Below are positions 3,123 through 28,615 of a DNA stretch of 64,000 bases, piece by piece. The DNA is taken from NCBI GenBank assembly GCA_041481445.1, contig JBGPBV010000015.1, positions 11,062 through 75,061 on the forward strand, in the 5' to 3' direction. The translations under genes and the position numbers were made by a program. Source of the DNA: Vicinamibacteria bacterium (GTDB lineage Bacteria; Acidobacteriota; Vicinamibacteria; Fen-336). Position 1 is the stretch's first letter; each line of letters opens with the position of its first letter. The notes beneath the pieces were generated by a model. That model saw only the letters and a list, made by a program, of their open reading frames with translations. It was not told where the DNA came from and searched no databases.

Positions 3123-3129
3123 CGAACGT

Positions 3130-5010
3130 ATGTGCGGGATCGCCATCGTCGTGAGCGATCGGGAACCGGTCGACCCCGGCGAGGTGAGACGCATGTGCGA
3201 CCTCATGGCTCACCGCGGGCCCGACTCATCGGGGTTCCATGTCACTCCGATGGCCACGCTGGGCATGCGGCGTCTCCGCATCATCGACCTCGAGGGCGGG
3301 GACCAGCCGATCTACAACGAGGACCGCTCCCTGGCCATCGTGTTCAACGGCGAGATCTACAACTACCGGGAGCTGCGCGAGGAGCTCCTGGCCAGCGGCC
3401 ACCGCTTCTCCACCGAATCGGACACCGAGGTGGTGCTCCACCTCTACGAGGAGCGCGGCGAGCAGGCCCTGCCGGCGCTGCGCGGGATGTTCGCCTTCGC
3501 CATCCACGAGCGGGACAGCGGCAGGGTGTTCCTGGCCCGCGACCGGCTGGGCATCAAGCCCCTGCACTACGCGCAGGTGGACGGGCGCTTCTTCGCGTCG
3601 AGCGAGATCAAGTGCATCGCCGGTCTCCCCGGCTTCCCTCGCCACCTCGACGAGGAGGCCCTCGACCAGTACTTCTCGCTGCTCTACGTGCCCTCCCCGC
3701 GAACGATCTTCCGTGAGATCCGGAAGGTGCCGCCCGGTCACTACCTGGTCAAGGAGCCGGGCCGCCCTCCCGTGATCCAGCGGTATTGGCAGCTCCGCTC
3801 GCGTCCCTGCGCGGGCCCCAGCGAAGCGGAATGGATCGACGGCTTCCGTCGGCGCTTCGACGACGCCGTGGCCAGTCACCTGGTGGCCGACGTTCCACTC
3901 GGCGTCTTCCTCTCCGGCGGGATCGATTCCAGCGGCATCGTGGCCGCCATGTCTCGCGCCGGAGGGCGGATCAAGACGTTCTCCCTGGGCTTTGGCGCCG
4001 CCTATTCCGACTTCGACGAGCGGCGATACGCCCGCATGGTCGCCGAGCGCTATGGGACGGAGCACGAAGAGCTGATCGTGGAGCCCCGGATCGAGGAGAC
4101 CATCCAGACCCTGGCCCGCGTCTTCGACGAGCCCATGGGCGACTCGGGCGCCGTCCCCAACTTCCTCATCTGCCAGATGGCGCGCCAGCGGCTGACGGTG
4201 GCCCTGTCCGGCCTGGGCGGGGACGAGTTGGGCGGGGGCTACCAGCGCCATCTCGGCGGCGTGCTCGCCGACTGGTACCGCCGGCTGCCGCGCGTCTTGC
4301 GGGAGCACGTCATCCGGCGCCTGGTGGAGGCCATCCCCGAGCCCGCGCAGGGCGGGCGCACCCTGGACCAGGCCAAGCGCTTCGTCCACAACGGCGACCT
4401 CGACACGGTGGAGCGCTTCCTCGCCTTCTCCAGCCCCCTGGACGGCACGCGCCGAAGTCTGTACACGCCGGCGCTGCGCGCGCGGGTGGGGCTGCGCTCT
4501 CCCTACGAGCCACTGCGTCGGCTGGCGGAGGAGCAGCCCCATGCCGACACGCTCAACAAGCTCCTCTGCATCGACCTGCAGTCCTACATGGTCGACGACC
4601 TGCTCACGGTGGCGGACCGGACGAGCATGGCCGTCTCCCTGGAGGTGAGGGTCCCCTTCCTCGATCATCCCCTGGTCGAGTTCATGGCCGGCGTGCCCGG
4701 AGACCTGAAGATCCGAAGGCTCCAGAAGAAGCACCTCCTGAAGAAGGCCTTCGAGAAGGACCTTCCGCGGGAGGTCCTGCATCGGCGCAAGGCGGGGTTC
4801 AGCCTTCCCATTGCCCGCTGGCTCCGCGAGGACCTGCGCGGCCTCCTGGAGGACGTGCTTTCCCCCCGGCGGCTGGCCCAGGACGGCCTGTTCGAGCCCT
4901 CGGTGGTGGAGTCCTTGAAGCGCGAGCACTTCCTCCGCACGCGCGACCGCAGCTCGGCCCTGTGGGGGCTGCTCATGTTCCACCTGTGGGCGGACAACTA
5001 CCTGAGCTAG
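3130..5010 (+). CDS. Asparagine synthetase (glutamine-hydrolysing)-family amidotransferase, exosortase/EPS-associated type
   Basis: Starts MCGIAIV (Ntn Cys2 glutaminase). Contains SGGIDSS PP-loop and MAVSLEVRVPFLDH C-terminal motif. Confidence 0.85.
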   Translation: MCGIAIVVSDREPVDPGEVRRMCDLMAHRGPDSSGFHVTPMATLGMRRLRIIDLEGGDQPIYNEDRSLAIVFNGEIYNYRELREELLASGHRFSTESDTEVVLHLYEERGEQALPALRGMFAFAIHERDSGRVFLARDRLGIKPLHYAQVDGRFFASSEIKCIAGLPGFPRHLDEEALDQYFSLLYVPSPRTIFREIRKVPPGHYLVKEPGRPPVIQRYWQLRSRPCAGPSEAEWIDGFRRRFDDAVASHLVADVPLGVFLSGGIDSSGIVAAMSRAGGRIKTFSLGFGAAYSDFDERRYARMVAERYGTEHEELIVEPRIEETIQTLARVFDEPMGDSGAVPNFLICQMARQRLTVALSGLGGDELGGGYQRHLGGVLADWYRRLPRVLREHVIRRLVEAIPEPAQGGRTLDQAKRFVHNGDLDTVERFLAFSSPLDGTRRSLYTPALRARVGLRSPYEPLRRLAEEQPHADTLNKLLCIDLQSYMVDDLLTVADRTSMAVSLEVRVPFLDHPLVEFMAGVPGDLKIRRLQKKHLLKKAFEKDLPREVLHRRKAGFSLPIARWLREDLRGLLEDVLSPRRLAQDGLFEPSVVESLKREHFLRTRDRSSALWGLLMFHLWADNYLS

Positions 5011-8202: not shown

Positions 8203-9416
8203 TGGCTGAGCACATGAGCCCTCTGTCCGGCGTGCCTGCACCTGTCTGCGTCCCCGAGCTGCGGCCGTCGGCGGTCGTTCCGCCTCCAGCCGTGCTCTTG
8301 ATCGGAGACAGCCTGAACTTCGGTGGCACGGAGGGACAGTTCGTCGAGCTGGCCCTGGGGTTGAATGAAGGGCCGTGGGACGTGCGCGTGAGCTGCATCC
8401 GGGCGGACGGACCACTGCGGGAGTCGCTCGAGACCGCGGGGATGCAGCCCTGGAGCTGCGGCCGCGGATCGTTCAAGTCTCCGCGTTTCGCGGCCGCGGT
8501 GTGGAACCTGGCCCGCTACCTTCGCGCGGAGCGCATCCAGCTCGTCCACTGCTTCGACTTCTACAGCAACATCCTGGGAGTCCCCGCCGGCCGCCTGGCC
8601 GGAGTGCCGGTCATCGCCAGCCAGCGCGAGCTGGGCGACCTGCGCTCGCCACTGCAGCGGCTGGTCTACCGCGCGATGCTGCGCCTGGCCGACTGCGTGG
8701 TCGTCAACTCGGAGGCGGTGGCGCAGCGGGTAAGGCTTCAGCGGGCCGCCCGCCCGGGCCGGCTGGTCGTCATCCCGAACGGAGTGGATCTCACGCGATT
8801 CGCGCCGGTTCCAGGGTCGGCGCGAAGCCCGGCGGGGCCCGTCACCATCGGGACGCTCGGCAACCTGCGCCCGGAGAAGGGGCTCGCGCACCTGATGCAG
8901 GCGGCGGCCCTGGTGCGCGAGACCTGTCCCCGAGCCCGCTTCGTGGTCTGGGGCGATGGTCCGCTTCGCCCGGAGCTGGAGAGGTTGGTCCGCCAGCTCT
9001 CGCTGGACGGGCTGGTCGAGCTTCGCGGCGCGACGGCGGAGCCGGAGGCGGCGCTCCGTGAGCTCGACATCTTCGTGCTCCCGTCGCTGAGCGAGGCGTG
9101 CTCGAACGCCCTCCTGCAGGCGATGGCGAGCGGCCTGGCCGTGGTGGCCACGGGGGTGGGCGGCACCCCGGCGGTGGTGACGGACGGGGAAACGGGGCTC
9201 CTGGTGGCGCCCGGAGATCCGGCGGAGCTCGCGCGCGCCATCCTCCGGCTCGTGGAGGAGCCCGCGCTGGCCGACCGGCTCCGGGCGGCGGCGCGGGCAA
9301 CGACGCGTACACGCTTCGCCTCCGACCGGATGCTCGATCGCTTTCAGGGCCTGTATCGACGATTGCTGGACGCGGGCACCGGCCCTTCCCGGTCGGGAGA
9401 CATATGTGTGGCATAG
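8202..9416 (+). CDS. Glycosyltransferase family 4
   Basis: ATG overlaps the upstream TGA. Motifs IGTLGNLRPEKG and FVLPSLSEACSNALLQAMASGLAVVATGVGG (GT4 EX7E region). Confidence 0.8.
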   Translation: MAEHMSPLSGVPAPVCVPELRPSAVVPPPAVLLIGDSLNFGGTEGQFVELALGLNEGPWDVRVSCIRADGPLRESLETAGMQPWSCGRGSFKSPRFAAAVWNLARYLRAERIQLVHCFDFYSNILGVPAGRLAGVPVIASQRELGDLRSPLQRLVYRAMLRLADCVVVNSEAVAQRVRLQRAARPGRLVVIPNGVDLTRFAPVPGSARSPAGPVTIGTLGNLRPEKGLAHLMQAAALVRETCPRARFVVWGDGPLRPELERLVRQLSLDGLVELRGATAEPEAALRELDIFVLPSLSEACSNALLQAMASGLAVVATGVGGTPAVVTDGETGLLVAPGDPAELARAILRLVEEPALADRLRAAARATTRTRFASDRMLDRFQGLYRRLLDAGTGPSRSGDICVA

Positions 9417-11275
9417 CCGGTAGGTTCAACCTCGACGGCCGCCCGGTGGATCCGGCCCTCATCACGCGCATGGCCACCGCCGTCACCCACCGCGGGCCGG
9501 ACGAGGGTGGCGTCCACTTCGCGGGAGCGATCGGGCTCGCCAACCGGCGGCTCTCGATCATCGACGTCGGCGGGGGCAAGCAGCCGATCGCGAACGAGGA
9601 CGGCACGGTGTGGGTGGTCCTCAACGGCGAGATCTACAACTTCGTGGAGCTGCGCGCTGAGCTCGAGAAGCGCGGCCACCACTTCCGCACGCGCACCGAC
9701 ACCGAGGTGATCGTCCACCTGTACGAGGACTTCGGCCCCGGCCTCCTCGAGCACCTGCGAGGGATGTTCGCCTTCGCGGTGTGGGACGAACGTCGGCGAC
9801 GGTTGCTGCTGGCCCGCGACCGGCTGGGGGAGAAGCCCCTCTACTATTCCCATCGCCCCGGCAAGTTCCTTCTCTTCGGCTCCGAGCTGAAGTCCCTCCT
9901 GGCCGACCCCGACCTTCACGTGAGCCTCAACGCGGCGGCGCTCGACCAGTACCTGAGCGTGTCGTACGTGCCGGCTCCCGACTCCATCTTCAACGAAGTG
10001 TCCAAGCTGCCGGCCGGCCACTACCTGACCTGCGACGAACAGGCCATGGAGGTCCGGGAGTACTGGGACGTGCCGCTTCCGCCCGACGGCGAGGAAGACA
10101 GGCTCGACGCCGAAGCCCTCCACGAGCGACTCCGCGAAGCCGTCCGCATACAGCTTCGGAGCGACGTGCCGCTGGGAGCGTTCCTGAGCGGCGGCATCGA
10201 CTCCACCACCATCGTGGCCACCATGGCCGAGTTCGTGGGTGCCGGGATCGTGAGCTGCTCGGTGGGCTTTGCGGAGAAAGAGCACAACGAGCTCTCGCAC
10301 GCACGCATGGTGGCCGATCTCGTGCAGAGCCGCCATCAGGAAGAGGTGGTCGAGCCGCCTTCGGCGGAGATGATCGAGCGGCTCTGCTGGCACTTCGACG
10401 AGCCCTTCGGCGACTCTTCGGCCGTGCCCACCTGGGCGGTGTCGAGACTGGCCCGCCGGCGGGTGAAGGTGGCCCTGTCGGGCGACGGCGCCGACGAGCT
10501 GTTCGGCGGCTATCGCCGTCACGCCGTCGAATCCTGGGAGCACAACCTCCGAGGCTATGGACGACTGGCCTCCCGGGCCATGTCTCGCCTGGCCGCGGCC
10601 CTTCCCGAGGGCATGACCGGACAGCACGCGTTCGCCCGCCTGGGCGCTCCCCCCGACGAGGCGTGCGCGCTGAAGTTCCAGTTTGCGAGCCGGGCCCAGC
10701 GCCTGAAGGAGCGGATCTACACGAGGGAGCTGCGCGAGGAGGTGAAGAAGAGCGATCCCGGCGCGCCCTTCAAGCGCGCCTACCAGCGCGCGCGCCGGAG
10801 CGACCCCGTCAACCGGATCCTGTACGTGGACCTCAAGACCTCGCTGGCCGACGACATGCTCGTCAAGGTCGACCGGATGAGCATGGCTCACGGGTTGGAG
10901 GTGCGCGCACCGTTCCTGGATCACCGGCTGGTGGAGATGGTCGCTCGTCTCTCCGGACGGGTGAAGCTGACCGGTTCCGCCACCAAGCCCTTGCTGCGCA
11001 CGGTACTCGACGGCCGCGTCCCCCGCGCCGCCTGGCACCGCCCCAAGCACGGGTTCACCGCGCCGGTGGCCCAGTGGCTGCGCGGATCGCTCCGCGCTTG
11101 CGCCGAGGATGTCCTCTTTCCGTCGTCCGGCGCCGGAAGCGGGCGGTTCGAGCGTAAGGGCCTCCGCCGCATCTGGGACGACCACCAGGCGGGACGGCAG
11201 AACCACGACCACGAGCTCTGGATGGTCCTCATCTTCGAGATGTGGCATCGGATGCACGCGCGGCGGGCCGCCTGA
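9404..11275 (+). CDS. Asparagine synthetase-family amidotransferase (third copy)
   Basis: Starts MCGIAGRF. Contains SGGIDST and MAHGLEVRAPFLDH. 13-nt overlap with the upstream GT4. Confidence 0.85.
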   Translation: MCGIAGRFNLDGRPVDPALITRMATAVTHRGPDEGGVHFAGAIGLANRRLSIIDVGGGKQPIANEDGTVWVVLNGEIYNFVELRAELEKRGHHFRTRTDTEVIVHLYEDFGPGLLEHLRGMFAFAVWDERRRRLLLARDRLGEKPLYYSHRPGKFLLFGSELKSLLADPDLHVSLNAAALDQYLSVSYVPAPDSIFNEVSKLPAGHYLTCDEQAMEVREYWDVPLPPDGEEDRLDAEALHERLREAVRIQLRSDVPLGAFLSGGIDSTTIVATMAEFVGAGIVSCSVGFAEKEHNELSHARMVADLVQSRHQEEVVEPPSAEMIERLCWHFDEPFGDSSAVPTWAVSRLARRRVKVALSGDGADELFGGYRRHAVESWEHNLRGYGRLASRAMSRLAAALPEGMTGQHAFARLGAPPDEACALKFQFASRAQRLKERIYTRELREEVKKSDPGAPFKRAYQRARRSDPVNRILYVDLKTSLADDMLVKVDRMSMAHGLEVRAPFLDHRLVEMVARLSGRVKLTGSATKPLLRTVLDGRVPRAAWHRPKHGFTAPVAQWLRGSLRACAEDVLFPSSGAGSGRFERKGLRRIWDDHQAGRQNHDHELWMVLIFEMWHRMHARRAA

Positions 11276-12557: not shown

Positions 12558-12582
12558 GCACGGTACCGCGAAAGGAGCGACG

Positions 12583-13269
12583 ATGACTTCAGGAGCTATT
12601 GGTGTTGTGAAGTCGAACGAATCGAAGATCGCGTCAATCCAAGGGTACATAGACCGGGCGATCGACGATCTTCTCGCGTCGCTCCGCCAGCCCGGACAGC
12701 TGTCCGCGGAGGAGCGGCGCGGAATCATCGCCCGCTACACGGCGGTGCTCGAGGGGAATTTCATCTACTGGATGACCGGCGCCTACATCTCGGTCGGGTC
12801 GGACGAGGCCCGCGCCAAGATCATGGACAATCTGCGCGAAGAAGTGCGCGACTGTCATCCCGGGATGATGCGACGGTTCGCCATTGCCGCCCACGCCATT
12901 CCGACCGATGCGGATGCGCAGGCCGTCTATCGCAACCTGATGAACGTTCGCTTGTTCATCGGACGACTGTCGGCGGTGCCGATCGTGGTGACGATGGCCT
13001 TCTTCGAAGGCTTCATCCAGCGGTTCATGTCCTATCTTGCCGAGCTCGCCCAGCGCCAGGGCTCGGCCGAGATGGAATACACGGACGTCCATGGCGTTTG
13101 TGACATCACCCATACCCAAGAGCTCTTCCGGGCGCTGGAAGCGGAGATGGTGCTCGTGCACTCCTTGCCCGAGAAGGAGATCTTCGAAGGAGTCGAGCTC
13201 CTTCGGACCCTGATCCAGAGCATCGTCGTCGACAACGAGACCGCTCGTGAGATGCGGACGCCGCAATGA
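12583..13269 (+). CDS. Heme-oxygenase-like diiron enzyme (HDO; iron-containing redox enzyme family, PqqC/TenA-like fold)
   Basis: 228 aa. Contains the HDO metal-ligand signature H-x3-D-x2-H (HGVCDITH) plus upstream Glu/His (EEVRDCH, LEGNFIYW). Size similar to CADD-type HDOs. Confidence 0.7.
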   Translation: MTSGAIGVVKSNESKIASIQGYIDRAIDDLLASLRQPGQLSAEERRGIIARYTAVLEGNFIYWMTGAYISVGSDEARAKIMDNLREEVRDCHPGMMRRFAIAAHAIPTDADAQAVYRNLMNVRLFIGRLSAVPIVVTMAFFEGFIQRFMSYLAELAQRQGSAEMEYTDVHGVCDITHTQELFRALEAEMVLVHSLPEKEIFEGVELLRTLIQSIVVDNETAREMRTPQ

Positions 13270-13550
13270 GCGGCGAGGAAACCATGTCAGTCAAGGCAAC
13301 CGTGATTTCGGAGATTCAGCGGATTGCAGAGGACGACAGCAAGAGTCTGCCTCCTCTGACCGACGACCTGGTCTTGCTCGATTCGGGGCTCGACTCGCTC
13401 GGCATCGCCATCCTCGTGGCTCGGCTCGAAGAGACATTGGGATTCGATCCGTTCACCGAAACCGACGACATTGCCTATCCGGTGACGCTGGGTGACTTCA
13501 TCAGGTTCTATGAACACGCCGCCGAATCCCATGGCGTCGATTCGAGATAG
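13266..13550 (+). CDS. Acyl/peptidyl carrier protein
   Basis: 94 aa. Phosphopantetheine-attachment motif LDSGLDSLGIAILVARLEE. ATGA-type overlap with the HDO stop. Confidence 0.75.
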   Translation: MSGEETMSVKATVISEIQRIAEDDSKSLPPLTDDLVLLDSGLDSLGIAILVARLEETLGFDPFTETDDIAYPVTLGDFIRFYEHAAESHGVDSR

Positions 13551-14913
13551 GCTGGGTAGCCCGCCGGAGGGCCCGGAGCGCTTCCTGTGGGGTGCCACGG
13601 CCAGCGTTCGTCTCGGCCACCGTCTCGACGGCACGGGCCTCCGCGGCCGGGTGGCGGAGCTCGCCCGGCGGTCGGTTCTGATCGCCACTCGGGATCAGTT
13701 CGCCACGGCATTGGCGCTCATCGAGCTGGACGGAATTGCCCGCCGCCTGGTCATCTGCACACCTGACCTGCCGCCCGAGCATCTTCCCGCCGTCGTAGCC
13801 AAAGCGGGCGTGGATGCGATCGTGTCGGATCGCGATGGCGGCCATGACGCATTGGGCGTTCCCCTGCGGGTTCTCTGCAACGGCACCGTCATGCCAGCCA
13901 AAGAGACGCCGGTCACGTGCTGCAGAACGGAGTGGGTGCTCCTCACCTCCGGCACCACCGGGGCGCCCAAAATGCTCGTTCACAGCTTCGCCAGCTTGAC
14001 GGCGCCCATCGGCAGCGCCCTGGGGCAGCGCGCCGACGTCGTGTGGGGCACGTTCTACGACATCCGGCGGTATGGGGGGCTCCAGATCTTTCTCCGGGCC
14101 GTCCTGGGCCCCGGTTCCTTCGTGCTTTCCGGCGCCGGCGAGCCGACGGGAGATCATCTCGTGCGGCTGGGCGCGCATGGGGCGACGCACGTTTCGGGGA
14201 CCCCCTCGCATTGGCGTCGTGCCCTGATGAGCCCGGACGCCCGTGCGATCGCGCCGCGCTACATCCGCCTATCCGGAGAAATCGCGGACCAGGGGATCCT
14301 GAACGCTCTCCATTCGTTCTACCCGCAGGCCAGCGTCGGCCATGCCTTCGCCTCCACGGAGGCCGGCGTGGGATTCGAAGTCAACGATGGTCTCGAGGGG
14401 TTTCCGGCGAGCATGGTCGGCGCGCCCGGCGACGTGCAGATCAAGGTCGTCGAAGGTTCGCTGCGCATCCGTTCCGCGCGGAATGCCGTCCGCTATGTCG
14501 GCGATGACGACTCCACGCTCACCGATGACGAAGGCTTCGTCGACACCGGCGACATGGTGGAACGCCGCGGCGACCGGTACTACTTCCTCGGTCGAAGGAG
14601 CGGCATCATCAACGTCGGAGGATTGAAGGTCTACCCGGAGGAAGTCGAGGCGGCGATCAACCGACACCCGGCGGTGCGCATGTCGATGGTGCGGTCCCGG
14701 AGAAGTCCCATTACCGGTTCCCTCGTCGCCGCCGACGTCGTCTTGAAGGGAGAGCCCGATTCGAGCGGCGCCGCTGGCGAGATGGTGGACTTCAAGCGCG
14801 AGATCCTCCAGATCTGTCACGACCGCCTGGCCCCCCACAAGATTCCGGCGACCATCCGTTTCGTTCCTGCCCTGGAGATTGCCGCCGCCGGCAAGCTGGC
14901 CCGTCATGCGTAG
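13510..14913 (+). CDS. ANL-superfamily adenylating enzyme (acyl- or aminoacyl-carrier-protein ligase)
   Basis: Core motifs LLTSGTTGAPK (A3), FASTEAG (A5), GDMVERRGDRYYFLGRRSGIINVGGLKVYPEEVE (A7/A8), terminal GK. Start ambiguous between Met codons at 13510 and 13531; it overlaps the ACP 3' end. Confidence 0.8.
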   Translation: MNTPPNPMASIRDRLGSPPEGPERFLWGATASVRLGHRLDGTGLRGRVAELARRSVLIATRDQFATALALIELDGIARRLVICTPDLPPEHLPAVVAKAGVDAIVSDRDGGHDALGVPLRVLCNGTVMPAKETPVTCCRTEWVLLTSGTTGAPKMLVHSFASLTAPIGSALGQRADVVWGTFYDIRRYGGLQIFLRAVLGPGSFVLSGAGEPTGDHLVRLGAHGATHVSGTPSHWRRALMSPDARAIAPRYIRLSGEIADQGILNALHSFYPQASVGHAFASTEAGVGFEVNDGLEGFPASMVGAPGDVQIKVVEGSLRIRSARNAVRYVGDDDSTLTDDEGFVDTGDMVERRGDRYYFLGRRSGIINVGGLKVYPEEVEAAINRHPAVRMSMVRSRRSPITGSLVAADVVLKGEPDSSGAAGEMVDFKREILQICHDRLAPHKIPATIRFVPALEIAAAGKLARHA

Positions 14914-15640
14914 GGTGATCGTGACGGGCGGAAGCCGGGGCCTGGGTCTGGGGATCGTCCGCCGGCTCACCGCCGAGGGCTACTGCGCCGTCGCCGTCGC
15001 GCGGCAGATGAACGATCAGCTCGCCTCGACGATCGAACGCGCGGAGCGGTCGCGTTCGGGGTCGCTCCATTTCATGCCGTTCGATCTCGGAGACGTGCAG
15101 GAGATACCGAACTTCGTCAAGAAGCTGCGGAAGGATTTCGGCCCGATCTACGGGCTCGTCAACAACGCCGCGCTGGGCTCGGAGGGCGCGCTGGCCCTCA
15201 TGCACAATGCGCAAATCGAGCGCCTGATTCGCCTGAATACGCTCTCGCCAATCATCCTGACCAAATACGTGGTCCGCCACATGATGGCGGACGGCGGCGG
15301 CCGCGTCGTCAACGTCGCGTCGATCGTTGGCTTCACGGGATACAGCGGCCTCTCGGTCTACAGCGCGACGAAAGCGTCCTTGATTGGATTCACGCGATCG
15401 CTGGCGCGCGAGGTCGGCCGGCGCGGCGTCAACGTGAACGCGGTCGCGCCCGGATTCCTGGACACGGAGATGACCCAGGGCCTGGACGGCGAGCGCCGCG
15501 AGCAGGTGGCGCGCCGGAGCGCGCTGGGCCGGTTTCCCGAAGTGGACGACGTCGCCGACGCGGTCGAGTTTCTGCTCGGATCGAAGGCCAAGAGCATCAG
15601 CGGGACCGTGCTCACCGTGGATGCGGGCAGCACGGCGTGA
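14906..15640 (+). CDS. Short-chain dehydrogenase/reductase (FabG-like)
   Basis: VIVTGGSRGLG Rossmann motif, NNAA, and catalytic S...YSATK. Overlaps the ligase stop. Confidence 0.8.
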   Translation: MRRVIVTGGSRGLGLGIVRRLTAEGYCAVAVARQMNDQLASTIERAERSRSGSLHFMPFDLGDVQEIPNFVKKLRKDFGPIYGLVNNAALGSEGALALMHNAQIERLIRLNTLSPIILTKYVVRHMMADGGGRVVNVASIVGFTGYSGLSVYSATKASLIGFTRSLAREVGRRGVNVNAVAPGFLDTEMTQGLDGERREQVARRSALGRFPEVDDVADAVEFLLGSKAKSISGTVLTVDAGSTA

Positions 15641-15665
15641 ACGGTCGTATCAAGGTGCTCGAGCC

Positions 15666-17522
15666 ATGACCGTCAACCAGGCCGAGACGGCCGTGCGACC
15701 TGCCCCCGGCAAACCGTCGTCGGCCAAGGCCTGGTCGCGCGCCCTCGAGCTGACCGCACCGATCGTCCGACGTCCCGATCGCATCTTGCCGACCGTCATC
15801 GAGGAGCTCGCGGAGAAGCTCGGGGACGCGCCGGCCCTCCTCTCGGACGGCGAGTGCCTGACCTATCGTGCCCTCGCGGAACGATCGACGCGATATGCCC
15901 GGTGGGCGATCGAGCAGGAGCTCGCCAAGGGCGACGCCGTCTGCCTCTTGATGCCGAACCGCCCTGAGTACATGGCCATCTGGCTCGGGATCACGCGCGT
16001 CGGCGGCGTCGTCGCGCTGCTCAACACGAATCTCGCCGGGCCCTCGCTCGCGCATTGCATCAACATCGCCGCCCCCCGACATCTCATCGTGGCCGTGGAG
16101 CTCATCGATCGGGTGACCGCCCTGCGGCAAGACCTCGCCGGTGCGCCGAAGATCTGGGTTCACGGCGCCGGTCACGACCACTGTCCGCGCATCGACCACG
16201 AAATCGAACGATACCGCGGCGACACGCTGCCGGAGGCCGAGCGCCGGCCCGTGACCATCGACGATCGCGCGCTCTACATCTACACCTCCGGCACGACCGG
16301 GCTGCCCAAGGCCGCCAACGTGAGCCATGCCCGGGTGATGCAATGGAGCCACTGGTTCGCCGGGCTGATGGACACTCGCTCGAGCGACCGGATGTACACC
16401 TGCCTGCCGATGTATCACAGCGTCGGCGGCGTGCTCGCGACGGGTGCGGTCCTGGTGGGCGGCGGCTCGGTGGTGATCCGCGAAACATTCTCTGGACACC
16501 ACTTCTGGAGTGACGTCGTCCGCTGGGACTGCACGCTGTTCCAGTACATCGGTGAGCTGTGCCGGTACCTGCTGCATGCCGAGCCGCACCCGCCCGAGAG
16601 GGATCACCGGATCAGGATGTGTTGCGGCAACGGGCTGAGGCCTGACGTCTGGAACTCCTTCAAGGAACGGTTTCGCATTCCGCAGATCCTGGAGTTCTAC
16701 GCGGCGACGGAGGGCAACGTCTCGCTGGTCAATGTGGAAGGCAGGCCCGGCGCCATCGGCCGCGTCCCGCTGTTCCTGGCCCACCGATTTCCGGCGACGC
16801 TCGTGAAATACGACGCGGAGGCGGACGCGCCCGTGCGCGACGCGCGCGGATTCTGCGTTCGCTGTGCGCCGAACGAAGTGGGCGAAGCGATCGGCCAGCT
16901 TCTGAGGGACCGGTCGAACGTTGGCAGCCGGTTCGAGGGCTACACGGACGAGGAAGCCTCGGAGAACAAGATCCTGCGCAATGTGGTGGAGCCGGGAGAC
17001 GCGTGGTTCCGGACGGGCGACCTGATGCGAAAGGACGAGCACGGCTATTTCTATTTCGTCGATCGGATTGGCGACACCTTCCGTTGGAAGGGCGAGAACG
17101 TCGCCACCTCCGAGGTCTCGGAGGCGATCTGCGGGTTTCCGGGAATCAGGGAGGCCAACGTCTACGGCGTGGCCATTCCGGGCACCGACGGCCGGGCGGG
17201 CATGGCGACCATCGTCACCGACGATGGGCTGGATCTCGCCGCCTTCCGGACGCACCTGGTCGACCGCCTCCCCGAGTACGCGCGGCCGGTATTCCTGCGC
17301 GTGCGGGACGACTTGGAAGTGACCGCCACCTTCAAGCACACAAAGAGCGCTTTGGTGCGCGAAGGTTACGACCCGGTCGCAATCGCAGACGCCATCTATT
17401 TCGACGATCGCGAACGCCAGGCGTTCGTCCGGCTCGACAAGGCGCTTCACGACCGCATCCAGAGCGGCCAGATCCGCCCTGACCGCCGTCCGAATGCGGC
17501 ACGCGGCAGCAAGACAGGCTGA
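15666..17522 (+). CDS. Long-chain fatty-acid-CoA ligase (FATP/very-long-chain acyl-CoA synthetase-like)
   Basis: YIYTSGTTGLPKAANVSH, YAATEGN, WFRTGDLMRKDEHGYFYFVDRIGDTFRWKGENVATSEVSE. About 620 aa, typical of the FATP family. Confidence 0.8.
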   Translation: MTVNQAETAVRPAPGKPSSAKAWSRALELTAPIVRRPDRILPTVIEELAEKLGDAPALLSDGECLTYRALAERSTRYARWAIEQELAKGDAVCLLMPNRPEYMAIWLGITRVGGVVALLNTNLAGPSLAHCINIAAPRHLIVAVELIDRVTALRQDLAGAPKIWVHGAGHDHCPRIDHEIERYRGDTLPEAERRPVTIDDRALYIYTSGTTGLPKAANVSHARVMQWSHWFAGLMDTRSSDRMYTCLPMYHSVGGVLATGAVLVGGGSVVIRETFSGHHFWSDVVRWDCTLFQYIGELCRYLLHAEPHPPERDHRIRMCCGNGLRPDVWNSFKERFRIPQILEFYAATEGNVSLVNVEGRPGAIGRVPLFLAHRFPATLVKYDAEADAPVRDARGFCVRCAPNEVGEAIGQLLRDRSNVGSRFEGYTDEEASENKILRNVVEPGDAWFRTGDLMRKDEHGYFYFVDRIGDTFRWKGENVATSEVSEAICGFPGIREANVYGVAIPGTDGRAGMATIVTDDGLDLAAFRTHLVDRLPEYARPVFLRVRDDLEVTATFKHTKSALVREGYDPVAIADAIYFDDRERQAFVRLDKALHDRIQSGQIRPDRRPNAARGSKTG

Positions 17523-17527
17523 GGTGC

Positions 17528-18922
17528 GTGAGCTCACCCATGGCGTTTGATCAAATCCGGAGTGTCGTGGCCACGCTCGAGTCCGACATCGCGAGCGGCC
17601 CCATCGTCCCGACGGTGGCGCCGCACGAGATTCGCAACTACCTCGGCTCGCGCTATGACTTCACGAAGCCAATGGCACTCGACGACGTCACCGCGGACGT
17701 CGAAGGGATGATGCGGAGGTGGCAGGTGCAGGTCACCCATCCGCGTTACTTCGGCCTCTTCAACCCGAGCGTGACCCTGGCGTCGGTGATCGCGGACACG
17801 CTGGTCGCCATGTACAACCCGCAACTGGCGACCTGGCGTACCTCGCCGGCGGCGAACGAGATCGAACGTCACACCCTTGCCTGGCTGACGGGCAAGTTCG
17901 GCCTGCCCGCCGCCACGATTGCCAGCTTCACGACCGGCGGAGCCGAGGCGAACCTCTCGGCGGTGATCGTGGCATTGACGCGGGCCTTCCCGGAGTACGG
18001 CGAAGGCGGGCTTCGGAGCCTGTCCGCGTCGCCGACCATCTACCTGACCCACGAAGCCCACGACTCGTTCCACAAGATCGCGCACATGACGGGGATCGGG
18101 CGCCGGGCGCTGCGGACGGTCGCGACCGACCGCGATCTGAAGATGGATCTCGTGGATCTGGCCAGACGAGTCGCCGAGGATCGCCGAAACGGGCTCGCGC
18201 CCGTCATGGTCGTCGGTACTGCCGGGACCACGGCGGCGGGCGCGATCGATCCCCTGCCGGATCTGGCTTGCTTCTGCCGGTCGGAGGAGCTGTGGCTTCA
18301 CGTCGACGCGGCGTGGGGGGGCGCCGCCATCCTCTCCCCACGCCTCCGCGGTCATCTCGCCGGCATCGAGGCTGCCGACTCGATCACGTGCGACGCGCAT
18401 AAATGGTTCTCGGTGCCCATGGGTGCCGGGATGTTCTTCTGCCGGCATCCCGACGCGGTTGGCGAGGCTTTCCGCGCGCAGACCTCCTACATGCCGGGAA
18501 GGACGGCGGGGCCGGTGGCCGATCCCTACACCACCTCGGTTCAGTGGTCGCGCCGCTTCATCGGCTTGAAGCTGTTTCTTGCCCTCGCCCAGCACGGCGA
18601 GTCCGGGTACGTCGAGATGATCGAGCACCAGGCTCGCATGGGTGACGTGCTGCGGGAGTCGGTCGAGCGTGCGGGGTGGCGCATCGTCAACCGCACGCCC
18701 CTGCCCCTCGTGTGCTTCACCCGGGATGGCCTCGTCGCCCGCCGCTTCCTCGCCGCGCTTCACGAGCGTCAGATCGCATGGATGTCGGAAGTACGCCTGG
18801 GCGACGAAGCGCCGGTCGTGCGTGCGTGTGTCACGAGTTTCCGGACAAGCCAGGCCGACATCGAGTGGGTGGTGCGCGAGATGAGCCGGCTCGCTTTGCA
18901 GGAGTCCGAGGTCAGGGCATGA
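17528..18922 (+). CDS. Group II PLP-dependent amino-acid decarboxylase
   Basis: 464 aa. PLP-lysine motif SITCDAHKWF and the fold-type I decarboxylase pattern. 6-nt gap from the ligase, 4-nt overlap with the next gene. Confidence 0.8.
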   Translation: MSSPMAFDQIRSVVATLESDIASGPIVPTVAPHEIRNYLGSRYDFTKPMALDDVTADVEGMMRRWQVQVTHPRYFGLFNPSVTLASVIADTLVAMYNPQLATWRTSPAANEIERHTLAWLTGKFGLPAATIASFTTGGAEANLSAVIVALTRAFPEYGEGGLRSLSASPTIYLTHEAHDSFHKIAHMTGIGRRALRTVATDRDLKMDLVDLARRVAEDRRNGLAPVMVVGTAGTTAAGAIDPLPDLACFCRSEELWLHVDAAWGGAAILSPRLRGHLAGIEAADSITCDAHKWFSVPMGAGMFFCRHPDAVGEAFRAQTSYMPGRTAGPVADPYTTSVQWSRRFIGLKLFLALAQHGESGYVEMIEHQARMGDVLRESVERAGWRIVNRTPLPLVCFTRDGLVARRFLAALHERQIAWMSEVRLGDEAPVVRACVTSFRTSQADIEWVVREMSRLALQESEVRA

Positions 18923-20217
18923 GACGCGAGACCATCGCCATCCATGGCGGCTACGAGGTCGATCCAACGACGAAGGCCGTTGCCGTGCCGATCTATCAGA
19001 CCGTCGCCTATGCGTTCGACAACGCCGACCATGGGGCGGCCCTGTTCAATCTCGAGGTCGAGGGATATCGCTACACCCGCATCGGCAACCCGACGACGGC
19101 GGTGCTGGAGCGGCGCGTGGCCGCCCTCGAAGGAGGACTGGAAGCGTTGTGTGTGTGCTCGGGACAGGCGGCGGTCCACTACGCGACGCTCAACGTGACC
19201 GGTCTGGGCAGCAATATCGTCTCCGTTCCACAGCTCTACGGCACCACCCACACCCTGTTCGCCCACCTTCTGCCCAATCAGGGAGTCACCGTCCGCTTCG
19301 CGGCGTCGGATCGTCCCGACGCCATCGAGAAGCTGATCGACGACCAGACGCGCGCCGTCTTCTGCGAAAGCGTCGGCAATCCCGCGGGGAACATCTGCGA
19401 CATCGAGGCCCTGGCTCGCGTGGCCCACGAGCACGGCGTGCCCCTCATCGTCGACAACACGGTCGCCACCCCGATTCTGCTGCGGCCGATCGAATACGGC
19501 GCCGACGTCGTGGTGCATTCGCTCACGAAGTTCATGGGCGGGCACGGCACGACGCTCGGCGGCGCCATCGTCGACAGCGGCCGGTTTCCCTGGAAGGAGC
19601 ACGCGCGACGCTTCCCGATGTTCAGCCGGCCGGACCCGTCGTACCACGACCTGGTCTATACCGACCATTTCAAGGAGGCGGCGTACATCGGGCGCTGCCG
19701 CAGCGTGTATCAGCGGACGACGGGATCGGTGCTGTCGCCCCTCAGCGCGTTCCTGCTGCTGCAAGGCATCGAGACGGTTGCCCTGCGGGTCGGCCGCCAT
19801 GTGGAGAACGGCAGGGCGGTGGCGGAATTCCTGGGCAAGGATCGGCGAGTGGAGTGGGTCAACTACGCCGGCTTCCCGGAGAATGCCTTTCATGCGCTCG
19901 CCCTGAAGTATCTCGGCGGCCGGGCCTGTTCTCTCATGACCTTCGGAGTCAAGGGAGGATTCGAAGCCGGCCAGAAGTTCTACGACGCGCTCAAGCTGAT
20001 CAAGCGCCTCGTCAATCTGGGCGACGCCAAGTCATTGGCCTGCCATCCCGCGTCCACCACGCATCGACAAATGTCCGCGGACGAGCAACGCCGCGCCGGC
20101 GTGACGCCGGAAACGATCCGGCTCAGCGTCGGCATCGAACACATCGACGACATCATCGGCGACCTGGACCAGGCGCTCGATGCGATGGAATCAGCTCCGC
20201 AAGGTGAGGTCCCATGA
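18919..20217 (+). CDS. MetY/MetZ-family PLP enzyme (O-acyl-homoserine sulfhydrylase / gamma-replacement family)
   Basis: MRRETIAIHGGYEVDP..., YTRIGNPT, and HSLTKFMGGHGTTLGGAIVD with the PLP lysine. ATG overlaps the decarboxylase stop. Confidence 0.85.
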   Translation: MRRETIAIHGGYEVDPTTKAVAVPIYQTVAYAFDNADHGAALFNLEVEGYRYTRIGNPTTAVLERRVAALEGGLEALCVCSGQAAVHYATLNVTGLGSNIVSVPQLYGTTHTLFAHLLPNQGVTVRFAASDRPDAIEKLIDDQTRAVFCESVGNPAGNICDIEALARVAHEHGVPLIVDNTVATPILLRPIEYGADVVVHSLTKFMGGHGTTLGGAIVDSGRFPWKEHARRFPMFSRPDPSYHDLVYTDHFKEAAYIGRCRSVYQRTTGSVLSPLSAFLLLQGIETVALRVGRHVENGRAVAEFLGKDRRVEWVNYAGFPENAFHALALKYLGGRACSLMTFGVKGGFEAGQKFYDALKLIKRLVNLGDAKSLACHPASTTHRQMSADEQRRAGVTPETIRLSVGIEHIDDIIGDLDQALDAMESAPQGEVP

Positions 20218-21254
20218 TCACCGAACGCCGATCATCTTCAGGTCTCGCGACGTTGGGGCCGGCGCGGCGTGGGCGCGGCCAGGCGCCGACGGGATTTCGC
20301 GGATCCGATCCGAATTGCATCGACATCGGGCTCATGAACAACATGCCTGATGCGGCGCTCGATGCCACGGAACGGCAGTTCCGCGCGCTGCTCGGAGCGG
20401 CGGCGAAGGACATCGTCGTACGCCTGACCCTCTACACGCTGCCGGAGGTTCCTCGCACCGAGTTCGGCCGGCGGCAGGTGAGCAGCTATTCCAACTTCGA
20501 TGAGCTGTGGGACCGCCATCACGACGGTCTCATCGTGACCGGGACGGAGCCGCGGGCGGCGGATCTCAAGGACGAGCCGTTCTGGGGCAGCCTGACCCGC
20601 GTTCTGGAGTGGGCCGAGGGCAACACGCACTCGACGATCCTCTCTTGTCTGGCCGCGCACGCGGGCATTCTCCACATCGATGGCATCGCGAGACGCCCGC
20701 TAGGCGACAAGCGCTTCGGCGTGTTCGAGTGTGTGCGCGTTTCGGATCATCCGCTGACGGCCGCCGCTCCGAGTCGCCTGCAGATGCCGCATTCCCGGTG
20801 GAACGAGATCCCCGAGGAAGCCCTGCTGGCGTGCGGCTATCGTGTCCTCACGCGGTCAGAAGACGCGGGGGTCGACGCCTTCGTGAAGCAGCGCAAGAGC
20901 TTGTTCGTCTTCTTCCAGGGTCATCCCGAATATGAGGCCACTACGTTGCTGCTGGAATATCGCCGGGATATCGGGCGGTTCCTCAGGGGAGAGAGAGACA
21001 CATATCCTCCCCTGCCGCAAGGCTACTTCGACGAAGAAACGGTGCACGCACTGACCACCCTGCGAGAGCGAGCACTCTCGGACCGCCGCGAGGAGCTGCT
21101 TGCCGAGTTCCCGATTGCCATGGCGGCCGGCAAGGTCACGAACAACTGGCGATCGACCGCGGAAGGCCTCTATCGCAATTGGTTGCTGTATATCTGCGCG
21201 GCAAAGAAGCAAAGCTGCGCGCGAGATGGAAGTCGCAAACGGCAATCGGTGTGA
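20214..21254 (+). CDS. MetA-family homoserine O-acyltransferase (O-succinyl/acetyl)
   Basis: [22 protein letters not shown], and [11 protein letters not shown] motifs of the MetA family. ATGA overlap with the MetY-like gene. Confidence 0.8.
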
Positions 21255-22408
21255 GAGGGAGAGTGCCGGTGATATGGGGCCTGTCGACCTTGCTCGTCAC
21301 CGGGCTTCTCGCCGCCTGTTCCAGCCCTGAAGCCAAGGTCGCCGGCACTTGGAGCCCGAAGGCCGCTGCCGCCTACCTCGATGAACGAGCAGACTGGTGG
21401 ATGGGATGGCAGGGGGCGGCCCGTGACCATGGGACTTGTTGCGTCTCATGCCATACGGCGCTGCCGTACGCCCTCTCTCGCGCCGCCCTCCGGAAGGCGC
21501 TGGCGGATGACGCTCTTTCCAACAACGAACGGAGACTCCTGGACAACGTCACGAAGCGTGTGCGCCTTTGGAAAGAGGTCGGACCCTACTACGGCGATCG
21601 TGACGGCAGCGCTTCCAAAGCCACCGAATCCCGCGGAACCGAAGCCGTCCTCAATGCCTTGATCCTCGTCTACCATGACGCTCAGAACGGCCGATTCAGC
21701 GAGGATACGCGAACCTCACTGGACAACATGTGGGCGCAGCAGGAGACGACGGGCGATCAAGGGGGTGCGTGGCCCTGGCTTCAGTTCGGTTTGAGCCCCT
21801 GGGAAGGAAGAGACTCCCAGTACTATGGAGCCGCACTTGCCGCGCTCGCGGTGGGCACGGCTCCAGGGCATTACCGTTCGAGCGCCGCGATACAGGGCAA
21901 CGTGGAGCGCTTGCGCTCGTATCTGGACCGCGAATACCCAAAGCAGCCTTTATCCAATCGCGTGGTCCTTCTGTGGGCTTCGACGAAATGGTCAGGGCTC
22001 CTCGAGAAAGAACGTGAAGAGTCTCTCGTCGCCGAACTTCTCGGGGAGCAGCGATCAGACGGAGGCTGGAGCCTCTCTTCACTGGCCAGGTCGCGGAGAG
22101 GTTCAACTCTGCGTTCCTATGTTCGGTCGTGGATACGAGACGATCGGACGCTGGTGGAGACGAAGAGTGACGGCTGTGCCACCGGCCTGGTCGCGTTCGT
22201 CCTGTTGGAGACCGACATGCCTCGCGAGAATGTCCAGCTTCAGGAGGGTCTATCCTGGTTGGTGGCCAATCAGGACAAAACCGAAGGCTCTTGGCCGGCC
22301 TACTCTCTCAACCGGCGACGCGATCCATCCTCCAATATCGGTCGCTTCATGAGTGACGCGGCGACGGGCTACGCCGTGCTCGCGCTCACTCGAGCCAACC
22401 GTTTTTGA
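21251..22408 (+). CDS. Lipoprotein with prenyltransferase/terpene-cyclase-like QW repeats and a single CXXCH motif
   Basis: Signal peptide with lipobox (LLAAC). QW-type motifs [34 protein letters not shown] at 21437-21454. Confidence 0.55.
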
Positions 22409-22496
22409 ATCAACGCGAGCGTTGTCCGGAGCCCCCGGCGCCGAGGACAACCTACGGCGTCGCGCGGGGACCACAGCCGGCCTGAAGGAGGAGGGA

Positions 22497-23888: not shown

Positions 23889-23907
23889 TGGCGAGCTTCG
23901 ATCAGCC

Positions 23908-24924: not shown

Positions 24925-24991
24925 GCTGTGTCCTGCCTGACCCGAGATGCGTGTCGACCGGAACCCTCGTCAACGCAGTGGGGGCCAATGA

Positions 24992-28590: not shown

Positions 28591-28615
28591 GCGCAACTCT
28601 GCACGGCGAGCGACC

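Follow-up and report, generated by a model that had tools for sequence, protein, structure and literature searches.

A heme-oxygenase-like di-metal oxygenase gene heads a conserved eight-gene cassette with a carrier protein in uncultured Acidobacteriota and Rokubacteria

Introduction

Can a heme-oxygenase-like di-metal oxidase/oxygenase (HDO) act on a substrate that is held by a carrier protein? The question is raised by a locus in a 64,000-nucleotide stretch of DNA from a Vicinamibacteria bacterium (GenBank assembly GCA_041481445.1, contig JBGPBV010000015.1, positions 11,062 to 75,061; hereafter the window), in which the gene for a small HDO stands immediately upstream of a gene for a carrier protein (ACP). 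Reactions are known for about a dozen of the more than 10,000 predicted HDOs, and almost every one that has been deorphanised gave new chemistry. The substrates of the validated enzymes (roughly a dozen) are free fatty or amino acids, peptides or the enzyme's own side chains, and in every substrate-bound structure of an HDO with three His and three carboxylate ligands (3H/3C) the substrate itself ligates Fe1. The sequence-only reading of this locus had called HDO chemistry on ACP-bound substrates scarcely characterised, and our searches agree, finding no described case in the searchable literature.

O2-activating di-iron sites do act on carrier-held acyl or aminoacyl thioesters in other protein folds, as in the ferritin-like stearoyl-ACP delta-9 desaturase, in CmlA and in PvfB/HamC. 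The likeness to HDOs is one of functional analogy only, as the folds (ferritin-like four-helix bundle or metallo-beta-lactamase) are unrelated.

Results

The window encodes an intact HDO

The HDO open reading frame, 228 codons and a TGA stop, occupies exactly positions 12,583-13,269 of the forward strand, on which all features given below also lie. A Shine-Dalgarno sequence, AGGAG (12,573-12,577), precedes the ATG with a 5-nt spacer, and a gap of 201 nt separates this region from the glycosyltransferase gene upstream. The GC3 of the gene (0.79) is typical among the genes of the window. A scan for promoters and terminators gave counts no higher than those in shuffled controls.

The protein matched PF14518 over residues 55-205 with a score of 35.2 bits (gathering cutoff 28.9; E = 1.4e-8), a domain also carried by 120 of 120 homologs among the matches listed. 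A PDB search with the single sequence returned no match; CADD was reached with the family profile only (E = 1.6e-9), in an alignment that pairs all six metal ligands. E87, H92, E142, H170, D174 and H177 correspond one-to-one to CADD E81, H88, E142, H174, D178 and H181. On core helix 1 (12,841-12,858), E87 (12,841-12,843) and H92 (12,856-12,858) lie in EEVRDCH (residues 86-92), with a spacing of E-x4-H compared to E-x6-H in CADD. Core helix 2 contributes E142 in FFEGF (13,006-13,008), and core helix 3 the triad H170-x3-D174-x2-H177 in HGVCDITH (residues 170-177; 13,090-13,113), a motif that the sequence-only reading had recognised but numbered one residue too low. Among 56 diverse family members, at identities down to 24%, 54-56 retain the six residues, which were invariant in all 63-65 cassette orthologs that cover them (53-89% identity). 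A further carboxylate, E188 (13,144-13,146), lies three turns past H177 and is an invariant feature of this family, where CADD has Leu; it may act in the second sphere or in substrate binding.

An AlphaFold2 model, the structure prediction that had been proposed as a check, was confident (pLDDT 94.6, pTM 0.90) and formed the seven-helix heme-oxygenase-like bundle. The predicted ligands sit on the expected core helices of the model (74-89/92-102, 131-158 and 165-189), an assignment to helices rather than a 3D geometry. The Pfam match, the CADD alignment and the ortholog invariance uphold the original description: the protein is a small di-metal enzyme of the heme-oxygenase-like kind and has the complete set of six ligands. 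We are confident that the reading frame codes for a real, intact HDO. From the alignments we infer that E87 and H92, E142, and H170, D174 and H177 bind two metals, most likely a diiron pair, and that the protein is probably a functional O2-activating enzyme.

Could the protein instead be something other than an oxygenase, either a metal-free protein of the same fold (TenA/thiaminase II or PqqC type) or a regulator? The earlier reading had named TenA/thiaminase-II or PqqC homology, or a structural model without a diiron site, as the results that would overturn it, and neither was obtained. The nearest relatives were the metal-binding HDOs CADD, HrmI, UndA and BesC rather than TenA or PqqC, and both the models and the closest structural neighbours place the protein outside the latter two groups. 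No Pfam match to TENA/THI-4 or to any DNA-binding domain was found at E <= 0.01, and an invariant, full 3-His/3-carboxylate set would be left unexplained without metals. We therefore regard a non-oxygenase role as highly improbable.

The HDO gene heads a conserved eight-gene cassette

The HDO is the first gene of a cassette with the order HDO-ACP-ligase-SDR-long-chain acyl-CoA synthetase-PLP decarboxylase-MetY-MetA. The ACP (13,266-13,550) has 94 residues, or 88 from an ATG at 13,284, and matched PF00550 (PP-binding) with 24.8 bits (cutoff 20.8). Its predicted phosphopantetheine attachment site is S44 (13,395-13,397) in G-L-D-S-L-G, and G-L-D-S-L with this serine was kept in nearly all of 56 orthologous ACPs. 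The HDO stop had been reported to overlap the ACP start. The ATGA overlap is real for the longest reading frame, in which stop and start are coupled, but the second in-frame ATG at 13,284 is equally good. It is preceded by GAGGA, would leave a 14-nt spacer after the HDO gene, and places the possible ACP start 18 nt downstream of that of the longest frame; orthologous ACPs were called at 91 residues with a gap of 18 nt.

The third gene encodes a divergent ANL adenylating ligase (13,492-14,913; start codon uncertain), which is the presumed ACP loader. Its A3 motif (TSGTTGAPK) and A10 lysine are intact, and the motif T-F-Y-D-I-R-R-(Y/F)-G-G is invariant. The stretch T-F-Y-D-I-R-R resembles the aromatic-Asp signature of amino-acid-activating domains, but a BLAST alignment with the window's acyl-CoA synthetase sets R192, not D190, opposite the His, and we drew no conclusion on an amino acid substrate from this A4 motif. 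A FabG-like short-chain dehydrogenase/reductase (SDR; 14,879-15,640) was assigned from domain matches and locus comparison, as was a group II PLP-dependent amino-acid decarboxylase (17,528-18,922). Between them lies the long-chain acyl-CoA synthetase (15,621-17,522; NF006134/PRK08279, 767 bits, cutoff 625). The cassette ends with a MetY-type O-acetylhomoserine aminocarboxypropyltransferase (18,919-20,217; TIGR01326, 591 bits, cutoff 495), whose homology begins about 81 codons inside the reading frame 18,676-20,217, and a MetA-type homoserine O-acyltransferase (20,214-21,254; NF003776, 411 bits, cutoff 358).

Further co-directional, tightly packed genes (21,179-27,568) lie outside the conserved cassette and encode a lipoprotein-like protein of 409 residues, a class III aminotransferase, a GNAT-like protein of 387 residues and an aspartokinase-homoserine dehydrogenase. 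The 409-residue protein was considered as a ninth member and discarded: it lies 3' of MetA in six distinct loci only. It is also unrelated to the GNAT-like proteins of 370-416 residues in other cassettes.

Across 71 HDO loci, which include contig-truncated ones so that many missing genes reflect contig or flank ends, 56 contain the ACP and 55 the ligase. The SDR was present in 48 loci and the acyl-CoA synthetase in 47, followed by the decarboxylase (38), MetY (36) and MetA (at least 25). In about 90% of the loci long enough to judge, both ACP and ligase accompany the HDO, usually directly downstream. The ACP follows the HDO directly in most loci, with an alpha/beta-hydrolase pair in between in about 16 more, and the HDO is the gene that most often directly adjoins the ACP. 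Co-location outlasts reordering of the genes (loci L017, L023, L042, L054 and L057). The hosts are classes of Acidobacteriota and Rokubacteria, together with single MAGs of Alphaproteobacteria, Thermoleophilia and Verrucomicrobiia. Eight MAGs hold two diverged copies, whose HDOs are 63-83% identical, with a separate MetY and MetA for each wherever the sequence extends far enough. The cassette is a self-contained, horizontally mobile unit, and the HDO very likely belongs to its pathway.

Departures from this arrangement were also found. At least four loci have an HDO and no detectable ACP (L011, L018 and L038/L039). One of these, L018, reads HDO-hydrolase-decarboxylase-MetY-MetA and lacks the ACP, ligase, SDR and acyl-CoA synthetase, while the MAGs with the ACP-less copies L038 and L039 also carry full ACP copies (L015 and L023). 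HDO homologs outside any cassette (30-46% identity) occur in DPANN archaea and one groundwater bacterium; they keep all ligands and Y52, N59, F60, W63, N83, F148, Y166 and E188. The clade as a whole, with 5,151 matches in a collection of 5.8 billion proteins, was confined to uncultured soil and groundwater lineages. Several orthologs bear the JGI name 'Lrp family transcriptional regulator', and one family member (P0200, 30% identity) is found on contigs of at most 3 kb.

Literature searches returned nothing relevant on this HDO-ACP-ligase-SDR-acyl-CoA synthetase-decarboxylase-MetY-MetA combination. What is new here, beyond the HDO-ACP pair already recognised, is that the HDO heads a conserved, multi-phylum cassette that includes dedicated MetY, MetA and PLP decarboxylase genes.

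The cassette differs from the exosortase A set

In the window, the cassette lies directly 3' of an exopolysaccharide (EPS) locus whose best matches are the XrtA/PEP-CTERM amidotransferase and the stp1/stp2 glycosyltransferases. The exosortase A (XrtA/PEP-CTERM) cassette comprises a TIGR03098 acyl-CoA ligase, a TIGR03099 decarboxylase, TIGR03100/TIGR03101 hydrolases and an ACP, all the families being of the 'hypothetical equivalog' grade, and it shares an ACP, an ANL ligase and a PLP decarboxylase with the HDO cassette. We know of no HDO, SDR, second ligase, MetY or MetA in the described XrtA set. TIGR03098 scored 125.8 bits for the acyl-CoA synthetase and 77 bits for a ligase ortholog against a cutoff of 592, and the cassette decarboxylase did not match TIGR03099. 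An alpha/beta-hydrolase pair was present in 17 loci, with TIGR03101 and TIGR03100 as best NCBIfam matches, whereas the window's cassette has none; the scores in those other loci were 56-74 bits for TIGR03100 (cutoff 168) and 67-72 bits for TIGR03101 (cutoff 203). All scores for this set fell far short of the family cutoffs, and only about six to eight loci have EPS-type genes at a distance of up to 10 kb. An exosortase/EPS link holds in the window, but on these two counts we discarded it as the explanation of the cassette and treat it as context only. Literature searches for exosortase with ACP and decarboxylase gave nothing relevant; Craig et al. 2011, a paper cited in PMC4897644, reportedly link N-acyl amino acid synthases to PEP-CTERM.

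Comparison with characterised HDOs

CADD is the closest solved relative by both sequence profile and structure. Might the window's HDO then be a self-sacrificial enzyme of the CADD/PabS kind, in which radical hole-hopping excises its own side chains to give a small metabolite such as p-aminobenzoate? The CADD relay residue Y170 aligns with an invariant Tyr (Y166), invariant aromatics (Y52, F60 and W63) surround the predicted site, and homologs are present in reduced DPANN genomes that lack pathway partners. However, the 4-aminobenzoate synthases CtCADD and NePabS (PDB 1RCW, 8VA9 and 9PJ4) are only 16-17% identical to the HDO, and equivalents of the two side chains described in a review as sacrificial, Tyr27 and Lys152, are missing. 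Opposite Lys152 stands F148, a position with Phe in 46 of the 56 family members and in 64 of 64 orthologs, and there is no conserved Tyr N-terminal to Y52, where CADD has Tyr27. CADD Y141 aligns with Phe or Leu. The family also differs from CADD by a one-residue E-G-N insertion in auxiliary helix alpha-2 and by the invariant E188, and its ACP-cassette context is unrelated to folate synthesis. Finally, an enzyme that is destroyed stoichiometrically fits poorly at the head of an eight-gene cassette. We consider a self-sacrificial role very unlikely.

The C-C cleaving olefin synthases UndA and BesC are 12-15% identical to the HDO, do not adjoin carrier-protein genes, depend on the carboxylate or amine of a free substrate at Fe1, and have no Glu in auxiliary helix alpha-2. 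HrmI is a 3H/3C enzyme that acts on free lysine. SznF and RohS, the 3-His/4-carboxylate N-oxygenases, have no detectable sequence similarity to the HDO, which, compared with SznF, RohS and HrmI, has no cupin or other fused domain. A. baumannii DtpC was considered as a close relative and set aside, being an SznF-like HDO not close to the window's protein. The window's HDO adds a new member to a known superfamily and would make a good target for deorphanisation.

A conserved turn may provide a seventh ligand

In the 3-His/4-carboxylate subclass (SznF and RohS), a beta-turn insertion in auxiliary helix alpha-2 carries a Glu that ligates Fe1. In the model of the window's HDO, helices 42-56 and 60-70 are split by a coil, E57-G58-N59 (12,751-12,759), as assigned by DSSP; it lies directly before core helix 1, in what is topologically auxiliary helix alpha-2. 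The three residues were invariant in 63 of 63 orthologs, and position 57 has Glu in 31 of the 56 wider-family members and in four of five cassette-less homologs (L064 and L069-L071, but not L072), including three of the four archaeal ones. CADD, a 3H/3C enzyme, has a one-residue deletion at this site. A profile of residues 36-108, searched for an alignment to SznF Glu189, found CADD again and gave no SznF alignment. From its place in the model, E57 may be a seventh, Glu, ligand positioned where SznF has its own, and by analogy the turn hints at heteroatom oxygenation.

Is the substrate tethered to the carrier protein?

The cassette contains no ketosynthase or condensation enzyme, and its free-standing ACP and ligase therefore fit the usual logic of on-carrier tailoring, which is established natural-product enzymology. 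In such a pathway the divergent ligase would load a carboxylic or amino acid onto the ACP, and the HDO would carry out an O2-dependent oxidative tailoring of the thioester: heteroatom hydroxylation if E57 is a ligand, or otherwise C-H hydroxylation or desaturation. With a carboxylate supplied by auxiliary helix alpha-2, Fe1 would no longer depend on a carboxylate from the substrate, a group that a thioester does not have. The SDR would set an oxidation state, the MetA/MetY/decarboxylase arm would yield a homoserine- or homocysteine-derived amino acid or amine, and the acyl-CoA synthetase would provide a fatty acyl group to give an acylated amino compound.

The proposal that the HDO works on a carrier-tethered substrate gains from the presence of ACP and ligase genes in 56 and 55 of the 71 loci, from the usual place of the ACP right after the HDO and, in the window, from the stop-start coupling of the longest frame; it is weakened in that the link is to the cassette as a whole, and by the ACP-less loci and the archaeal homologs without a cassette. 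The alternative is that the HDO of the same cassette acts on a free small molecule, either a homoserine-, homocysteine- or methionine-derived amino acid, its decarboxylated amine or an UndA-like free fatty acid, with the ACP serving acyl delivery only. Characterised HDOs all use free substrates that coordinate Fe1, and in L018 and L038/L039 an HDO is kept beside decarboxylase, MetY and MetA genes with no ACP, although the ACPs of the full copies could serve L038 and L039 in trans. The cassette-less archaeal homologs retain almost all of the invariant residues, which suggests substrate recognition independent of the ACP. Two basic positions could bind a free carboxylate: R51, an Arg in 44 of the 56 family members, and R46, where 43 of them have Arg or Lys. 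Against this, the HDO most often lies directly beside the ACP, and a free-standing ACP and ligase without a condensing enzyme would then have no obvious purpose. We regard a free substrate as a real possibility, if on balance a doubtful one. Tethering to the ACP is itself a tentative assignment, falling a little short of an even chance, and the full reading (a di-metal HDO in a cassette pathway that oxidises its substrate on the ACP) has in our estimate a probability of roughly 45%.

Discussion

How far can the product be specified? In the most specific form that we considered, the HDO would be a 3-His/4-carboxylate heteroatom oxygenase with E57 as seventh ligand, N- or S-oxygenating a homoserine- or homocysteine-derived amino acid or amine from the cassette MetA, MetY and PLP decarboxylase, possibly as an ACP thioester, to which a fatty acyl group is then joined. 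The product would be either a metal chelator (acyl-hydroxamate or thiohydroxamate type) or a homotaurine-type sulfinate or sulfonate aminolipid, and would be widespread among the uncultured Acidobacteriota and Rokubacteria of soil. This detailed picture is unlikely to be right in full. If it were, with the substrate carrier-tethered, it would give the first HDO on a tethered substrate and a metabolite class so far unrecognised for the two phyla.

Were the substrate ACP-bound, HDO chemistry would reach as far as carrier-tethered intermediates, and the rule that has been proposed, a carboxylate in auxiliary helix alpha-2 in place of coordination by the substrate, would be put to the test. As a compact, repeatedly transferred set of eight genes, the cassette would lend itself to synthesis and expression as a whole. 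Its dedicated MetA/MetY pair suggests that in Acidobacteriota and Rokubacteria secondary or envelope metabolism has taken over the gamma-replacement chemistry of O-acyl-homoserine.

Fold and metal ligands of the HDO

The heme-oxygenase-like di-metal oxidase/oxygenase (HDO) is encoded by a 228-codon ORF (12583-13269, +; ATG start, TGA stop) with a ribosome-binding site, AGGAG, at 12573-12577 (+). The gene lies 201 nt from an upstream glycosyltransferase gene, and its codon-position GC is in line with that of other genes in the window. The protein matched Pfam PF14518 (Haem_oxygenas_2, "iron-containing redox enzyme") above the gathering score; no NCBIfam model matched it, and as a single sequence it matched no PDB chain. 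A family profile built from 56 diverse relatives (identity down to 24%) matched Chlamydia CADD/CT610, now named 4-aminobenzoate synthase, at E = 1.6e-9. The profile aligned the metal ligands of HDO and CADD as E87/E81, H92/H88, E142/E142, H170/H174, D174/D178 and H177/H181. The AlphaFold2 model was all-helical and highly confident (pLDDT 94.6, pTM 0.90), and its top Foldseek match in the PDB was CtCADD (TM 0.65-0.72).

The six ligand residues were kept in 54-56 of the 56 family members, and in every cassette-type ortholog covering the position (63-65 loci, identity 53-89%). The sequence-only reading of an intact di-metal HDO therefore holds: neither loss of the di-metal site nor TenA or PqqC as best relatives was found. 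EEVRDCH lies upstream as proposed, at residues 86-92, while HGVCDITH is present but spans residues 170-177 (nt 13090-13113), one later than first placed. On all testable points, sequence and predicted structure agree that the protein belongs to the HDO superfamily; that it is non-enzymatic or metal-free seems highly improbable.

Orthologs carry the database label "iron-containing redox enzyme family protein". Many of them (the proteins P0001, P0006, P0009, P0011, P0040 and others) are named 'DNA-binding Lrp family transcriptional regulator' by JGI. Their sole Pfam domain is PF14518, and the Lrp name looks like a propagated annotation error.

Comparison with CADD and SznF

Beyond the ligands, the orthologs share Y52, N59, F60, W63, N83, F148, Y166 and E188 without exception, and conservation of these residues across the wider family is 82% or higher. 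CADD is the closest relative of HDO, but its sacrificial Lys152 lies opposite F148 of the HDO family and its Tyr27 has no conserved tyrosine counterpart. We therefore rejected a CADD-type pABA synthase, and a self-sacrificing reaction of the CADD kind is very improbable.

The model shows a helix ahead of core helix 1, topologically auxiliary helix alpha-2, that is interrupted by the coil E57-G58-N59 (residues 57-59), with helical segments at 42-56 and 60-70. These three residues are invariant in 63/63 orthologs and correspond to an insertion of one residue when compared with CADD. SznF has a beta-turn interrupting the same helix, with its seventh ligand, Glu189, at the tip, and a ligand of this type has been proposed to make coordination by the substrate unnecessary and to bias the reaction towards heteroatom oxygenation. 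An alignment of the HDO family to SznF was sought and none was obtained. By analogy with SznF, E57 is a candidate seventh metal ligand, at roughly even odds, and HDO may belong to the SznF/RohS subclass with a 3-His/4-carboxylate (3H/4C) ligand set.

HDO leads a conserved cassette

The HDO stop codon was previously read as overlapping the start of the carrier protein (ACP) gene. ATGA at 13266-13269 does open a 94-aa ORF, but translation could equally well begin at 13284, at an in-frame ATG with GAGGA ahead of it, and ACPs of orthologous loci are called with an 18-nt gap after HDO. With either start the two genes are tightly coupled.

Scanning one genome per species gave 68 loci, all from MAGs. 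They came from Acidobacteriota (Vicinamibacteria, Bryobacterales, Terriglobia), Rokubacteria, Verrucomicrobiia, one alphaproteobacterium, one Thermoleophilia and four DPANN archaea. Cassette membership was assigned by tblastn with window proteins against the loci. Among the 71 loci holding HDO, where many absences are contig or flank ends, we found ACP in 56, an ANL ligase in 55, a FabG-like short-chain dehydrogenase/reductase (SDR) in 48, a long-chain acyl-CoA synthetase in 47, a group II PLP decarboxylase in 38, MetY in 36 and MetA in at least 25. Gene order differs in five loci (L017, L023, L042, L054, L057), yet the genes remain clustered. Rokubacteria have one copy type without ACP and SDR (HDO-ligase-acyl-CoA synthetase-MetY-MetA-decarboxylase).

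Eight MAGs each contain two diverged cassettes (L015/L038, L018/L040, L020/L035, L023/L039, L026/L043, L028/L051, L036/L047 and L056/L061), with HDO copies 63-83% identical. Where sequence extends that far, each copy has its own MetY (80-92%) and MetA (54-81%). Both proteins pass NCBIfam cutoffs, yet their genes belong specifically to the cassette and are not housekeeping genes that happen to lie nearby. One short Bryobacteraceae contig (L048) has two HDO paralogs in divergent orientation, one on each strand and ~1.2 kb apart, which share 62% and 64% identity with the query; the second is directly followed by a ligase, with no ACP in between.

An alpha/beta-hydrolase pair, absent from the window, occurs inside the cassette in 17 loci, between HDO and ACP where both genes are present. 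Its top matches, below threshold, were "exosortase A system-associated" hydrolases 2 and 1. Similarity of the cassette to the exosortase A-associated ligase/ACP/decarboxylase/hydrolase set is limited to the kinds of genes present, with no family cutoff reached. Occasional inserts encode GT2, Acyl_transf_3, a hexapeptide acyltransferase, an ATP-grasp enzyme, an extra ligase or GNAT-like proteins of 370-416 aa. Full-text literature searches gave no description of this cassette, which is undescribed and widespread.

Neighbouring genes in the window

An EPS locus directly precedes the cassette, with best matches to XrtA/PEP-CTERM-type amidotransferases and glycosyltransferases. Its three paralogous asparagine-synthase-like amidotransferases (8-487, partial; 3010-5010; 9098-11275; all +) each best matched TIGR03108 (XrtA/PEP-CTERM system amidotransferase), below cutoff. 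Between them lie stp1/stp2-like GT4 glycosyltransferases, a GT2 and a UDP-glucose dehydrogenase; no exosortase gene was present among the scanned window genes. EPS-type genes lie within 10 kb of the cassette in only ~6-8 loci.

Further co-directional genes without conserved partnership encode a 409-aa protein, a class III aminotransferase, a GNAT-like protein and ThrA. The 409-aa protein (21179-22408, +) matched no Pfam or NCBIfam model; it has a lipoprotein-type signal (…LLAAC|SS), a haem-c-type CxxCH motif (CVSCH) and repeated GGxWP/DGGWS/EGSWP. It follows MetA in the window, L001, L003/L004/L007, L037 and L040, and is absent there in most cassettes. Downstream of ThrA, a FemAB-like (Acetyltransf_6) 426-aa protein (28568-29848, +) and a GMC-family FAD oxidoreductase (29937-31385, +) are likewise not conserved near the cassette in other loci. 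Two Ser/Thr protein kinases of very large size, with TPR repeats in one and a TolB-like beta-propeller in the other, and an FHA-domain protein (36245-39724, 39729-40694 and 49055-51943, all on the minus strand) appear unrelated to the cassette.

Is the substrate tethered?

We put the probability that HDO acts on a substrate tethered to ACP at about 45%. Full-text searches found no report of an HDO acting on a carrier-tethered substrate. HDO adjoins ACP in most loci, and ACP and ligase co-occur with it in ~90% of loci with enough sequence for a judgement, both of which favour tethering. As the cassette contains no ketosynthase or condensation enzyme, ACP and ligase look as if they work together to sequester a substrate for tailoring; in a thioester the substrate's own carboxylate is masked, a situation to which a carboxylate from auxiliary helix alpha-2 would be well matched.

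Several observations count against tethering. All validated HDOs, about a dozen in a 2026 review, use a free substrate, a peptide or their own side chains, and the substrate ligates Fe1 in every substrate-bound structure of the 3-His/3-carboxylate (3H/3C) type. HDO occurs in L011, L018 and L038/L039, where we found no ACP nearby. Distant homologs that lack the cassette also keep nearly all ortholog-invariant residues, including E57 in 4/5. These archaeal and other homologs (30-46% identity) neighbour TrmB regulators, a flavin reductase, a methyltransferase, an ornithine-cyclodeaminase-family gene and a rhodanese. The DPANN members (L069 7575-8195, L070 6662-7276, L071 1040-1543 and L072 2822-3496; 30-37% identity), from the reduced genomes of Aenigmarchaeota, Nanoarchaeota and Woesearchaeota, have the full ligand set, and the genes beside them include those for the flavin reductase, the rhodanese, the ornithine-cyclodeaminase-family protein and TrmB regulators. 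That HDO instead oxidizes a free substrate within the same pathway is somewhat less probable than tethering.

Proposed role of the cassette

With a tethered substrate, we infer the following scheme, in which each step is a proposal. The ligase, with intact A3 and A10 motifs and an invariant T-F-Y-D-I-R-R-(Y/F)-G-G, would put an acid onto Ser44 of ACP, and the HDO di-metal site would use O2 to oxidize the tethered intermediate. N- or S-oxygenation would be favoured if E57 is a ligand, and C-H hydroxylation or desaturation if it is not. The SDR would set the hydroxyl/keto state. MetA and MetY could supply an O-acyl-homoserine-derived amino acid, from which the decarboxylase would make an amine. 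The PRK08279-type synthetase would contribute a long-chain acyl group, so that the pathway would yield an acylated amino compound with a role in the envelope, in EPS decoration or in metal binding. An uncharacterised HDO leading an undescribed, widespread cassette is a good target for deorphanisation, though no surprise in kind.
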